Shown: one piece after another, positions 30,632-38,449 of the stretch | Numbering within the stretch: the first letter of the stretch is position 1 | Layout: the number at the start of each line of letters is the position of its first letter | Program-made: the position numbers and the translations under genes | The notes under the pieces: model-generated | Database searches by the model: none | The model's input: only the letters and a program-made list of their open reading frames with translations | What the model was told of the DNA's origin: nothing | Sequence record: OL960581 | DNA from: Escherichia phage vB_EcoM_SA20RB | Direction: 5' to 3' (one strand) | DNA length: 64,000 bases

Positions 30632-31105
30632 TTATTTGAACGATTTAACGTACTGAATAGAACCTTTACTATTCACGAAAGCGATTTTACCATTTTTATT
30701 ATACATGGTAGCAGTACGCTGATAGCCATAAGTTTGCTTACCAGATTGATAACCAACTAATGCAAAATTATCTTCACCCATTTTATTCTGTTTAGCACGA
30801 ATGCGTTCATGACCATGTGCCATAAGAACCTTAGCATCACCAGTTGCAATGGATCTACGAGTTTTTTCATCTTCAACTGTATTAACAAAGTCGTCAAATG
30901 AATCAAATTTAGCATGAGATTTATTATACAGTTTTCCATCTACTGCATAATTATATCCCTGTACATCCATCTCAACTTCTGTACCATCATCCAATACAGC
31001 AGTGATTTTCTGTCCTTTTTTAAATTTCAAAAGATCAGTAAAAGATTCAGCAATAATTTGAGAATTAATAGCTGCTTCAGTAATAAATTCTTGATATGTT
31101 TTCAT
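30632..31105 (-). CDS. Internal-protein-like protein with capsid-targeting-sequence-like N-terminus
   Basis: 157 aa; N-terminus MKTYQEFITEAAINS resembles the ipI leader MKTFKEFTST; occupies the T4 ipII/ipIII locus next to e; early promoter upstream. Confidence 0.55.
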   Translation of the reverse strand: MKTYQEFITEAAINSQIIAESFTDLLKFKKGQKITAVLDDGTEVEMDVQGYNYAVDGKLYNKSHAKFDSFDDFVNTVEDEKTRRSIATGDAKVLMAHGHERIRAKQNKMGEDNFALVGYQSGKQTYGYQRTATMYNKNGKIAFVNSKGSIQYVKSFK

Positions 31106-31159
31106 GTGTTTCCTTTAAATATTTTAATTAGTAATCTATTTATTTAAGTAACTGTGAAT

Positions 31160-31189
31160 ATACTATCACAGTTTTAGGAGAAAGTAAAC
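31160..31189 (-). promoter_or_regulatory. T4-type early promoter (-35 GTTTAC, -10 TAGTAT)
   Basis: Minus strand reads GTTTACtttctcctaaaactgtgaTAGTAT. Confidence 0.5.
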
Positions 31190-31193
31190 AACT

Positions 31194-32162
<969 letters not shown>

Positions 32163-34403: not shown

Positions 34404-34679
34404 TTATTTCATATTATTGAAATATTCTTCTGCGATTTCGTCGTTATCATGGTAAACTTTAGAAGACAGTTTAACATAACTTTCAGCAGTGAACATGTTA
34501 ATCACAACCTTTACAGTATACCACTGACCATCTTCATTACCCATTACTGCGTAAGTTTCAAACATCGGATGGTCAGGACCGATAACTTTAATATCATTCA
34601 CTGTACGACCGAAATCTTCTGAAACGCATTTCATAAAGAAGTTGAACAGTTCGCCGTAATTATCCATTTCATTCTCCAA
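34404..34679 (-). CDS. Hypothetical protein (e.7 position)
   Basis: ORF-track 91 aa; early promoter and conserved leader upstream. Confidence 0.55.
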   Translation of the reverse strand: MENEMDNYGELFNFFMKCVSEDFGRTVNDIKVIGPDHPMFETYAVMGNEDGQWYTVKVVINMFTAESYVKLSSKVYHDNDEIAEEYFNNMK

Positions 34680-34710: not shown

Positions 34711-34740
34711 ATAGTACCATGGAAGAACGGGGATGTAAAC
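34711..34740 (-). promoter_or_regulatory. T4-type early promoter (-35 GTTTAC, -10 TACTAT) with conserved leader
   Basis: Minus strand reads aaaaaattttttcacaaaactGTTTACatccccgttcttccatggTACTATacaactatcaactac. Confidence 0.6.
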
Positions 34741-34872: not shown

Positions 34873-34903
34873 CCAAAAAGCCCCAACCTTTTGGTCGGGG
34901 CTA
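34873..34903 (-). terminator. Rho-independent terminator (AGCCCCGACC-AAAA-GGUUGGGGCU plus U-run)
   Basis: Stem-loop followed by TTTTTGG on the minus strand, directly 3' of the ORF ending at 34910. Confidence 0.7.
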
Positions 34904-34909
34904 AGAATG

Positions 34910-35383
34910 TTATTTGATTTGTTTAGCAGACCAAATGCGATCTTTAATAATTTTTTGGATGTCTTCAACATACTCTAGGTCATGAGCATGTGGATTATCT
35001 TTGAAACTATGAGCTCGCGCAAGTTTCTGGCCTTCGGTCTTAATTATCAAAAGTTCTTTAAGAATTGCTTCATACCTAGAGATAATTCCTTTAGCAATAT
35101 TTTTTTCTTGTGCTGCTTTAGGGTCAGCCTTAGGAGCAGGTTTACCTGAAGCCTTTGCAAAAGCAGCTCCAGTAGCAACTAAACTTTTCCAGGCCATACT
35201 AACTGCATTCCCTGTAAATCCTTCGGCTTTCATATCACGAGCAAATTGGAATCGTGATTCATCGGAAGCATCTTTATAGGAATATTTACCCGCGGCAATG
35301 GCTGCTTTTGCGACAGCTTGAATTTCGGTGCTAGATGCTTCATTTAACGCCGCTTCATTTAAAAATTGAGCATATGATTTCAT
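34910..35383 (-). CDS. Late-expressed protein with capsid-targeting-sequence-like N-terminus (e.8 position)
   Basis: 157 aa; N-terminus MKSYAQFLNEAALNEAS parallels MKTYQEFITEAAINS of 30632..31105; exact late promoter TATAAATA upstream; flanked by terminators. Confidence 0.6.
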   Translation of the reverse strand: MKSYAQFLNEAALNEASSTEIQAVAKAAIAAGKYSYKDASDESRFQFARDMKAEGFTGNAVSMAWKSLVATGAAFAKASGKPAPKADPKAAQEKNIAKGIISRYEAILKELLIIKTEGQKLARAHSFKDNPHAHDLEYVEDIQKIIKDRIWSAKQIK

Positions 35384-35419
35384 CTTATTTCCTGTTTTAA
35401 TTCGTGGTTTTAATATACT

Positions 35420-35427
35420 TATTTATA
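35420..35427 (-). promoter_or_regulatory. Late promoter TATAAATA
   Basis: Exact TATAAATA on the minus strand about 37 nt upstream of the ATG at 35383. Confidence 0.6.
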
Positions 35428-35458
35428 CTAAAAAGCCCCAACCTTTCGGTCGGGGCTA
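35426..35458 (-). terminator. Rho-independent terminator (AGCCCCGACC-GAAA-GGUUGGGGCU plus U5) ending the stable-RNA/tRNA transcript
   Basis: Stem-loop followed by TTTTT on the minus strand. Confidence 0.7.
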
Positions 35459-35461
35459 AGC

Positions 35462-35770
35462 CTTGCGGCAACCTTGTCGGGGTTCCACCTGCTAAGGCAA
35501 GTGTTTGTACGAAACGCCGGGATTCGAACCCGGTTATTAAGCAGTTGACGCTACTCAATATTTTTAAAAGGCCATATCTCGACCATATCCGAACGTTCCG
35601 TCAAAAACGCTACTCGGCTTACGGCAAAGATATTTCCTCGAATCGATAATTCGGTGCGCCGTTTCTGCTGTGATGTAAGAGGGCATCAATAAACGCAAAG
35701 ATTATTAACGCAATTCCTTACTCAGGGAACATCAGTCCGACGACTTACCGGTAGCGACCCGGTTTCTCAT
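35462..35770 (-). ncRNA. Small stable RNA region (T4 rnaC/rnaD-like), boundaries not resolved
   Basis: Non-coding stretch between tRNA-Arg and the terminator; contains a tRNA-like T-arm CCGGGTTCGAATCCCGG (minus strand, near 35517-35533). Confidence 0.4.
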
Positions 35771-35851: not shown

Positions 35852-36517
35852 TTAAAATTTCATTTTTCGACCTTTAAACCATCCTTCTGGAATTGGGTCA
35901 GTTTTCTTAATACGTTTAGAAACTTTTTCATCTAATGAATGAATCCACATCATACCAAATTGGGAATTCTTTTCACCCTGTTGATGTTTATTTCTGGCGT
36001 GAGATTCTTTCATTTTATTAATAGTTTCAGGAGTATGGGTCTTACCCAAGAAAGATTTAGTATTTAAAAATTTCTCTCTATACTTAGGATTATCCCAAAG
36101 CTGTTTAAACCTTTCTGAACCCATTTTACGATATTTTTCTTTAAGGTCTGGGTCGTTCTCAAATCTGGTTTTAAAAGCAGCAGCCCCTTTTAAGGAAGCT
36201 TCTTTCTTTTTATCCAAATATTCTTTAGTGTTTAAATGGTCCCAACCACCTTCACCACCTAATTTCAAATTATAAACATCAAGGCGCTTTAAAAACTCTT
36301 CAGTCACAATATTCTTTTCTGACTCAAACATAGAGGTTTTATCGTCAAAGAACTCTAATATTTCTTTAGAGAAATTTTCTATACCATACTTGTCTTGGGC
36401 TCTTTTTAATAATTTACCAGAACCCATATATCCATCATCTAAATTTTCGGTAGAATGAGCGCCTATATAGATTTTATTATTAATTTTATTTGTTATTTTA
36501 TAAGTGTAATGGAACAT
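35852..36517 (-). CDS. segB: GIY-YIG homing endonuclease SegB
   Basis: 221 aa; N-terminal YTYKITNKINNKIYIGAHST GIY-YIG motif; lies inside the tRNA cluster as T4 segB does. Confidence 0.85.
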   Translation of the reverse strand: MFHYTYKITNKINNKIYIGAHSTENLDDGYMGSGKLLKRAQDKYGIENFSKEILEFFDDKTSMFESEKNIVTEEFLKRLDVYNLKLGGEGGWDHLNTKEYLDKKKEASLKGAAAFKTRFENDPDLKEKYRKMGSERFKQLWDNPKYREKFLNTKSFLGKTHTPETINKMKESHARNKHQQGEKNSQFGMMWIHSLDEKVSKRIKKTDPIPEGWFKGRKMKF

Positions 36518-37227: not shown

Positions 37228-37521
37228 TTACCATTTATGATAATACATATTTACGATGCATTCAAGACCCAAAGGATTCTTGAAAATATCATATTCAAGA
37301 GGACCTTTTTCTGTTTCAATAAAGAAATCAAAATTTACTGTATTAAATGTACGGTCTTCCTTTACTAATTTAACTTGAGAAGATGAACGGTCAATGTAAA
37401 CCTTTTCAACTTCAAAATATGTTAAAATGCCATAATCATCAATCAAGGCTTTAGCTGCTTCTTGATCATATTTATATCCATTTTCAATGGATGATACTTT
37501 CGCATAAAGAATCATTATCAA
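37228..37521 (-). CDS. Hypothetical protein
   Basis: ORF-track 97 aa; 4-nt overlap with the upstream gene. Confidence 0.5.
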   Translation of the reverse strand: MIMILYAKVSSIENGYKYDQEAAKALIDDYGILTYFEVEKVYIDRSSSQVKLVKEDRTFNTVNFDFFIETEKGPLEYDIFKNPLGLECIVNMYYHKW

Positions 37522-37898
37522 CCTTCATCAACAATAGTGTGCGTATTGGCATTTACAATTTGCCACCAATCAAAGCGATTGGAACCATAATCTGGTTTGT
37601 TTTCATTTTCTTTGATAATGTCACGGAGTTCATCTTCGGTAGCGGCTTTCGCTATTAAATCAGCATATCCACCACGAGGATAATAATTATCACCTGCAAA
37701 AAGTAAAAAGTTTGGTTTAATGTTATTGAACTCTTCAAGAGTAATAACTTTTCCTGACGGTTGAACAATCTCTACATATTTATATCCCAATTTTTGAGCA
37801 GCATCTACTGCTTCAAGCAAAGTATCATGAGCCCATCCAATTTGACAACCTGGCTTTTCAGATGGATTAGCCTGATAATCCGCATACACTTTGTACAT
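37518..37898 (-). CDS. Hypothetical protein (start trimmed to the Met at 37898 to avoid overlap)
   Basis: ORF 37518..37937 (139 aa); internal start MYKVYADYQ. Confidence 0.5.
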   Translation of the reverse strand: MYKVYADYQANPSEKPGCQIGWAHDTLLEAVDAAQKLGYKYVEIVQPSGKVITLEEFNNIKPNFLLFAGDNYYPRGGYADLIAKAATEDELRDIIKENENKPDYGSNRFDWWQIVNANTHTIVDEG

Positions 37899-37899
37899 T

Positions 37900-38085
37900 C
37901 TATTCACCTTTAGAAATTTTATCCATAACGATAGCAATTAAACCAATTAAAAATGCTACTACAAGTGAAAAAACATTTTCTGCTGTAGTCAATAATCCGC
38001 ATATAAATCCAACAAACATTGAAAAACTAAAAGCAGAAGCAGAAATTGCAATAGCAACATTTCGAATTAATTCACAACGTTTCAT
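37900..38085 (-). CDS. Small membrane protein
   Basis: 61 aa, mostly hydrophobic; early promoter upstream. Confidence 0.5.
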   Translation of the reverse strand: MKRCELIRNVAIAISASAFSFSMFVGFICGLLTTAENVFSLVVAFLIGLIAIVMDKISKGE

Positions 38086-38161: not shown

Positions 38162-38449
38162 TTACAAAAGATTTTTAGCAATAATCTTGAGATGTGCTGC
38201 AGAAATGTGTTTAGCTTTAAACAACGCAGTTTCTTCGGCAGGAGAGATAACGATTGTAGCACCATCCTTTTTAGCAGACCACCCATCACCTAGGTAAACA
38301 GTACCTTTGATTTCTTCGCCATCAACCAAGCTAATCATTGGTTTACCTTCTCGTCCTTTATTTGCTTTAATAACTTCAGAAGTAAGAGTAGCTTCAGTAA
38401 TAGTAGAAACCGGGGTAGTTGTAGAAGTAAATTCTTTGAAAGTTTTCAT
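38162..38449 (-). CDS. ipI: Internal protein I precursor (packaged head protein with capsid-targeting leader)
   Basis: 95 aa as T4 IPI precursor; N-terminus MKTFKEFTSTTTP; adjacent to 57B. Confidence 0.75.
   Translation of the reverse strand: MKTFKEFTSTTTPVSTITEATLTSEVIKANKGREGKPMISLVDGEEIKGTVYLGDGWSAKKDGATIVISPAEETALFKAKHISAAHLKIIAKNLL

Follow-up and report, generated by a model that had tools for sequence, protein, structure and literature searches.

A terminator-bounded late cassette in Escherichia phage vB_EcoM_SA20RB encodes a putative internal head protein

Introduction

Between the stable RNA genes and gene e.8 of Escherichia phage vB_EcoM_SA20RB lies a single ORF of 157 codons enclosed by two intrinsic terminators, and the question raised by this locus is what so isolated a gene encodes, when it is expressed and whether its product leaves the cell inside the phage head. 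The ORF was studied within a stretch of 64,000 nt from sequence record OL960581, referred to below as the window. By exact sequence match its product is SA20RB_133 of that phage, with RB32ORF132c and RB33_134 as synonyms. An initial annotation had described a self-contained late transcription unit encoding a second leader-bearing protein, packaged into the head and injected with the DNA.

A capsid-targeting sequence (CTS) directs encapsidation of the T4 internal proteins (Ips), which are otherwise unrelated to each other (PMC3012670); the CTS has also been described elsewhere (PMC9391042, PMC12373910). Until 2022–2025 a target was known for only one T-even internal protein; those of Ip2 and Ip3 then followed, and the remaining Ips are now viewed as a reservoir of anti-defence proteins (PMC12373910, PMC9391042). 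Ip1, Ip2 and Ip3 are injected inhibitors, each of a distinct GmrSD type IV restriction enzyme, and two Ip loci are named in the literature (PMC12373910). IPIII, a protein acting in the cytoplasm, is required on ECOR17 (PMC9391042). What is new here is a probable new internal protein family at a third, cassette-type Ip locus.

Results and discussion

Genomic context and layout of the unit

The window is of the Tequatrovirus RB32/RB33 type. According to the RB33 and T4 annotation, the minus-strand order is tRNA.4, tRNA.3 and tRNA.2, eight tRNAs interrupted by segB, rnaD, rnaC and the ORF, followed on its 3' side by e.8, e.6, further genes, nudE, e and an Ip gene at the ipIII position. The site of the ORF is the interval between the rnaC terminator, which closes the tRNA operon, and the early promoter of e.8 (Table 1).

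The ORF had been placed between two strong terminators and behind an exact late promoter. Its coordinates were correct and both hairpins are present, the downstream one starting 7 nt past the stop codon and the upstream one lying directly 5' of an exact TATAAATA on the minus strand, as claimed. The description of the surroundings as an otherwise early region did not hold, late promoters being found also 5' of gene e, at 31702–31722.

Table 1. Coordinates of the cassette and of related features in the 64,000-nt window
Feature	Coordinates	Strand	Remarks
ORF, 157 aa, ATG start	34910–35383	minus	putative internal head protein precursor
Late promoter, T4 type, exact TATAAATA	35420–35427	minus	36 nt 5' of the ATG
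Shine–Dalgarno sequence (SD) AGGAAA	35388–35393	minus	4 nt 5' of the ATG, sequence reading
Upstream intrinsic terminator	35429–35459	minus	ends the tRNA/rnaD/rnaC unit; left copy of a 28–30 nt direct repeat
Downstream intrinsic terminator	34873–34904	minus	right copy of the direct repeat; GGTATCTAGGCC next, as after the lone T4 copy
Leader (propeptide), residues 1–15, MKSYAQFLNE/AALNE/	35339–35383	minus	CTS-like; two L-N-E / A protease motifs
Early-type promoter of e.8, TTTACA-17-TACTAT	34711–34739	minus	predicted early promoter in the fPS-90 annotation
e.8, next gene	34404–34679	minus	context
Leader-bearing gene, ipIII-position locus next to e	30632–31105	minus	DUF7412 / phrog_3155, internal virion protein
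T4 IPI, classical ipI locus	38162–38449	minus	PF11634, GmrSD inhibitor

The stable RNA species 1 and 2, the tRNA-like rnaC and rnaD, occupy 35460–35770 on the minus strand according to the RB33 and T4 annotation. A cmscan search of the window against Rfam returned the eight tRNAs and no rnaC or rnaD family, and the two were therefore identified through that annotation.

Terminators and late promoter

The two hairpins (35457–35434 and 34902–34879) each comprise 10 pairs, 7 of them G-C, a loop of 4 nt and a T5 run. The upstream hairpin folds at -20.3 kcal/mol and the downstream one at -19.5 kcal/mol (z-scores -5.2 and -4.1), a stability reached by none of 200 shuffles, as is expected of intrinsic terminators. 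One 28-nt sequence is present in both, with 1 mismatch, against a chance expectation of 0 such pairs, and no third similar copy was found elsewhere in the window.

In so AT-rich a window the octamer TATAAATA is no statistical rarity (14 occurrences vs 10.9 expected), and its frequency was rejected as promoter evidence. What gives it weight is where it lies and that it is conserved at diverged loci. It is exact at six of seven loci from four genera, the seventh, that of PhAPEC2, having AATAAATA. The exact form is kept in RB33, G2540, fD1, KP1 and fHe-Yen9-01, and a late promoter is predicted at this position in the fPS-90 annotation. A copy 20–60 nt 5' of the start codon, kept in orthologous loci, is what a late unit would be expected to show.

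The surroundings of the element vary between genera. Upstream, RB33, G2540 and fD1 (Tequatrovirus) are arranged as the window is. In KP1 (Jiaodavirus) a different terminator is followed directly by AGTATAAATA and a leader ORF, adjoining tRNAs and an e.8-type early promoter, and in fHe-Yen9-01 (Tegunavirus) a terminator and TATAAATA precede the tandem leader-bearing ORFs gp154 and gp153 and a further terminator. PhAPEC2 (Mosigvirus) combines AATAAATA with two copies of a lineage-specific terminator variant, after which comes a second leader-bearing ORF of the RB69ORF149c type. The order terminator, TATAAATA, SD, ORF, terminator is kept in Tequatrovirus, Jiaodavirus and Tegunavirus, and with AATAAATA in Mosigvirus, despite diverged flanks, which bears out the description of a self-contained late unit. 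That a late-promoter element has stayed 3' of a terminator in four genera, although the flanks have diverged, gives good support to an autonomous late unit.

This late-only promoter between terminators sets the ORF apart from the two other leader-bearing genes of the window, whose promoters are early-type. The window ipI (38162–38449) has an early-type promoter only (GTTTAC...TACTAT) and no TATAAATA, and the ipIII-position gene has an early-type GTTTACTTT...TAGTAT plus AATAAATA (31105–31200, minus). The sequence AATAAATA is a one-mismatch variant of the late promoter and stands also 5' of the PhAPEC2 cassette and of cassette A, described below.

The leader

The N-terminus of the ORF had been said to parallel that of the protein encoded at 30632–31105, and the alignment agrees, with 8 of 15 positions identical and 4 conservative. 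That the ORF encodes a second such protein was an undercount. The ORF at 38162–38449 has the length and the first 45 residues of T4 IPI and matches PF11634; there are therefore three leader-bearing genes at three loci in the window.

The leader, MKSYAQFLNE/AALNE/A (a slash marking the putative cut), resembles the CTS of the T4 internal proteins and holds two L-x-E prohead-protease motifs. The corresponding leaders are MKTYQEFIAE/A in T4 IPII and IPIII, MKTFKEFINE/A in RB33 Ip7 and MKTYQEFITE/A in the DUF7412 Ip of the window, and relative to these the ORF keeps M1, K2, S/T3, Y4, F7, I/L8, E10 and A11. Against MKTYQEFIAE, 5–6 of 10 residues are identical, with T3S and I8L conservative and Q5A and A9N non-conservative, a degree of likeness consistent with a CTS; the differences from the assayed T4 CTS fall at positions 3, 5, 6, 8 and 9. 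The pattern ^MK[ST][YF]..F[LIVM].E occurs in 2 of the 609 ATG-started frames in the window, against 0.0004 expected.

During T4 head maturation the prohead protease, gp21, cleaves at [L/I]-x-E followed by a small residue. This motif is consistent with the cut of IPI after ITE19, which gives IPI* with 76 of the 95 residues (PMC3012670). In the ORF it is matched by two candidate sites, L8-N9-E10/A11 and L13-N14-E15/A16. The second L-N-E/A motif comes from a 15-nt tandem duplication, TTAAATGAAGCGGCG / TTAAATGAAGCATCT, at 35333–35362 on the minus strand. The Mosigvirus orthologue is without the duplicated site and has a single one; the DUF7412 Ip and fHe-Yen9-01 gp154 have two.

Leaders of this kind recur among distant homologues. 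Searched exhaustively with a profile, 1.84 billion representatives yielded 13 clusters only, and those bearing the family N-terminus all keep an M..[FY].[ED]F[LV].E leader (for example MLKFNEFLAE, MINFSDFLNE, MKSFSSFLNE and MKFKEFLAE), even where the body is about 40% identical or the C-terminal half differs. Scanning for leaders beyond the known loci uncovers more candidate Ip-type genes, as this ORF shows.

Homologues, constraint and protein body

A tblastn search retrieved 511 phage records, from phages of Escherichia, Shigella, Yersinia, Salmonella, Citrobacter and in part Klebsiella. Comparison with orthologues gave dN/dS of 0.05–0.10 at dS of up to 1.3, indicating purifying selection. 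Cluster members mostly have 157–182 aa, the rest being truncated or chimeric (57–108 aa). The Klebsiella (Jiaodavirus) and Yersinia (Tegunavirus) versions have a common N-domain, GKYSYKD..SRFQFARDMK..GF....V..AWKS, and a different C-terminal half.

The sole PHROG match of the ORF is phrog_2280 (full length, E = 2e-59), to which no function is assigned. The same family matches at full length the cassette-A protein, KP1_122 and fHe-Yen9-01 gp154, and its members differ in the N-domain (A vs B type) or in the C-terminal half (Klebsiella/Yersinia type). Comparison of A-type with B-type cassette proteins by hhalign was weak (35%), and BLASTP of the window ORF (B type) against fHe-Yen9-01 gp154, an A-type relative, gave no match; the relationship therefore rests on joint membership of phrog_2280 and on shared architecture.

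The initial annotation had called the body Ala/Lys-rich and helical, in agreement with the 30 Ala and 20 Lys among the 157 residues and with six predicted helices. In the AF2 model (mean pLDDT 76.6) a disordered, low-pLDDT leader is followed by a small helical N-domain at residues 18–71 (pLDDT 85–91), a disordered Ala/Pro/Lys linker at residues 76–87 and a long helical hairpin at residues 88–154. The pI of 9.4–9.6 is basic and comparable to those of T4 IPII and IPIII. Searches of Pfam, NCBIfam and PDB sequences with the protein or its profile gave no match, no homology of the body to IPI_T4 (PF11634), DUF7412 (PF24183), IPII or IPIII was found, and none of the internal-virion-protein PHROGs matches the ORF. 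Likewise, a fold search with the predicted model returned generic helical hairpins only and nothing specific. Because the body is without similarity to IPI, IPII and IPIII or to a specific fold, its sequence is uninformative on function.

The family is annotated as hypothetical nearly everywhere; among the members of three clusters the one exception is the Klebsiella phage KPKp entry, named 'Internal head protein'. This annotation and the lack of a Pfam or NCBIfam family are what one would also see if the ORF were non-functional, a chance frame or a decaying remnant between two terminators. Such a reading is refuted by the 511 phage records, by the strength of purifying selection and by the detection of orthologue peptides by MS (see below); the conserved promoter and SD and the confident AF2 model, with domain pLDDT of 80–91, also stand against it, and we assign it a negligible probability.

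In its sequence-level features the ORF is of the CTS-bearing Ip class, without being homologous to IPI, IPII, IPIII or the DUF7412 Ip.

Virion association of an orthologue

The orthologue in phage fD1 (Tequatrovirus) is g140, with 149 of 157 residues identical (95%). It was scored PPAP at the strict threshold in LC-MS/MS of ultracentrifuge-purified fD1 virions, as particle-associated as two other Ip genes of that phage, g129 and g146; the adjacent g138 and g139 (e.8) were not so scored (PMC8309999 Table S3). The dataset is permissive, with 113 of 277 phage proteins scored, among them DenV, lysozyme e and NudE, together with 672 host proteins (PMC8309999). A late, abundant, basic protein such as g140 could merely co-purify with virions. 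These data therefore prove expression of g140 and weakly support its packaging. Elsewhere, the fPS-2 paper contains no proteome, phiR1-RT is not among the 30 matches listed of the 50 records matching the homologue, and the ORF protein was not found in the Silas 2025 supplements.

The inclusion of clearly cytoplasmic enzymes in the fD1 dataset would also suit a late cytoplasmic protein that is never packaged, its leader-like N-terminus being a recombination relic of ip genes, a shared 5' module without targeting. T-even genomes do shuffle modules at short homologies, and the duplicated terminator shows that recombination has occurred here. A relic would not, however, be expected to stay intact at the protein level in four genera and in homologues of about 40% identity while the nucleotides diverged, nor to keep its L-x-E motifs followed by A or S, duplicated in the lineage of the window. 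The overall dN/dS of about 0.05–0.1 and a late-only expression that matches the time of prohead assembly also count against it, and we consider this explanation very unlikely. The earlier reading of a packaged head protein gains support from the CTS-type leader with its L-x-E motifs and from the particle association of the 95%-identical orthologue, albeit in a permissive dataset.

A polymorphic site

In T4 the ORF is absent: one identical terminator follows rnaC, with GGTATCTAAGCC and the early promoter of e.8 directly beyond it. The window has an insertion of 555 bp immediately behind the T-run, a block comprising TATAAATA, the SD, the ORF and a second copy of the terminator. Since the block brings this second copy, directly repeated terminators enclose the unit. 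Beyond its earlier description, the late unit is a cassette: the terminator is duplicated around it, and its site, unoccupied in T4, is polymorphic.

The arrangement of the window is present in about 385 of the 684 matching records of the phage collection; T4-like records have the empty site. Among Tequatroviruses the site is found empty, with cassette A, with cassette B (that of the window) or with B plus A, so that the ORF, being polymorphic among close relatives and absent in T4, behaves as an accessory gene. Cassette A encodes a protein of 187–188 aa of the RB69ORF149c type with the leader MKTYAEFLTE/AAKLPSE, and has AATAAATA upstream and its own terminator. FL12 carries cassette A alone, with an ORF of 188 aa (locus extract L009, 480–1260), and fPS-90 carries it in tandem with the cassette of the window, each followed by its own terminator (locus extract L008, 507–1796). 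A terminator-bounded cassette of this kind illustrates gene movement between T4-like genomes.

Proposed mechanism and function

We propose that the ORF probably encodes a previously unrecognised T-even internal protein that is made late and directed to the prohead core by a CTS, is trimmed by gp21 and, after staying with the DNA, is injected along with it. Its packaging by way of the leader, its cleavage and its injection are what we infer. Transcription would occur only late, from the ORF's own gp55-type TATAAATA promoter, the copies of the rnaC terminator insulating both sides; late-only expression fits the timing of prohead assembly. The leader of about 10 residues, MKSYAQFLNE, would act as the CTS and bring the precursor into the prohead scaffolding core, and gp21 would cut it off after Glu10 and/or Glu15 (L-N-E/A). 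The predicted new N-terminal peptides are AVLNEASSTEIQAVAK from A11 and ASSTEIQAVAK from A16. The mature protein would then have 142–147 aa and a pI of about 9.5 and be all-helical, with the N-domain, the Ala/Pro/Lys linker and a C-terminal helical hairpin. It would remain in the head with the DNA, enter the next host with it and there may neutralise a first-response defence, for example a type IV (GmrSD-like) restriction variant, by analogy with Ip1, Ip2 and Ip3. Its gene would be an accessory cassette at a third Ip locus, reaching from the rnaC terminator to the e.8 promoter, and open to gain, loss and swapping by recombination.

From the biology of the Ip class, namely CTS encapsidation and GmrSD inhibition, an anti-defence role is by analogy the most likely function, one to which we give somewhat less than an even chance. 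A protein packaged through its leader might instead be a structural or DNA-condensing head protein with no specific anti-defence target, neutralising the charge of the DNA or aiding packaging and ejection. Its pI of about 9.5, its 20 Lys and 30 Ala, its Ala/Pro/Lys linker and its generic helical-hairpin fold would suit such a role, as would the contacts of T4 internal-protein lysines with DNA phosphates (PMC3012670). However, T4 and many other Tequatroviruses do without the gene, which marks it as dispensable, the alternative cassettes at the site form the pattern of host-range accessory genes, and the T4 Ips tested so far have all proved to be specific inhibitors (3 of 3; PMC12373910). A purely structural role is accordingly judged unlikely.

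The anti-defence reading can be extended, more tentatively, to the locus as a whole. The stretch from the rnaC terminator to the e.8 promoter may be a third, hitherto undescribed internal-protein locus with interchangeable, terminator-bounded late cassettes, and phrog_2280 a modular superfamily built of a leader, a variable N-domain, an Ala/Pro/Lys linker and a variable helical C-domain, with a defence target other than those of Ip1–3. We regard this composite reading, the modular design included, as plausible but rather more likely to fail than to hold. The target in such a case might be a GmrSD enzyme of a new subtype or a first-response system of an unrelated kind.

The mechanism as such will not surprise a specialist. 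The gain is a cheaply testable candidate for a counter-defence factor and host-range determinant, if the protein is injected as is probable. More than 500 sequenced phages carry a member of its family, among them many T4-like candidates for phage therapy, and the family lies outside the two cited Ip loci.

Comparison with known internal proteins

The ORF product is closest in kind to T4 IPII and IPIII (Ip2 and Ip3), with which it has in common a near-identical 10-residue leader ending in [IL]-x-E/A; all are small, basic and non-essential, and are encoded on the minus strand in the e / tRNA / ipI region. It differs from them in its mature body, which has no detectable sequence or fold similarity to theirs, and in its locus, between e.8 and rnaC.

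T4 IPI and its processed form IPI* (PF11634) are likewise comparable, IPI being leader-bearing and itself processed by gp21 and injected with the DNA. The IPI leader, however, has 19 residues (cut after ITE19) and diverges after position 7, and IPI* has a 76-aa alpha/beta fold, whereas the ORF protein is predicted to be all-helical with two domains.

The ipI locus of T-even phages is reportedly polymorphic, with Ip5–Ip10 and others described by Repoila et al. in 1994, RB33 Ip7 being one example. The present site resembles it in that one site holds unrelated ORFs in different phages, with the leader alone in common, and differs in lying about 3 kb away, beyond the tRNA cluster and segB. In the Ip literature, as distinct from Repoila 1994 and the T4-like comparative genomics of 2006–2010, the ORF family is not mentioned, and literature searches for RB32ORF132c, the leader strings and Ip7–Ip10 found nothing useful.

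Traces of recombination at the site

The flanking terminator copies are more alike within one genome than between genomes. Both copies of the window read ...CCCCGACC[G/A]AAAGG..., and both PhAPEC2 copies (1420–1450 and 1972–2003 of locus extract L006) read ...CCCCTTCCGAAAGG..., with an imperfect stem. This within-genome likeness points to gene conversion or to duplications that arose independently. Were the two copies to recombine, the empty arrangement of T4 would be restored.

The GIY-YIG homing endonuclease gene segB (35852–36517, minus) is found some 470 bp upstream of the cassette. In mixed infections, the cassette could spread more readily if SegB drives the co-conversion of markers on its flanks.

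A 2898-bp contig of a Logan assembly (P0014) encodes a 94-aa chimera, in which the N-terminal part of the tRNA.3-like protein (window 37518–37937) is joined to the last 32 residues of the ORF. On its sequence, the chimera implies a natural deletion of about 2.6 kb that removed the entire tRNA cluster, segB, rnaC/rnaD and most of the cassette.
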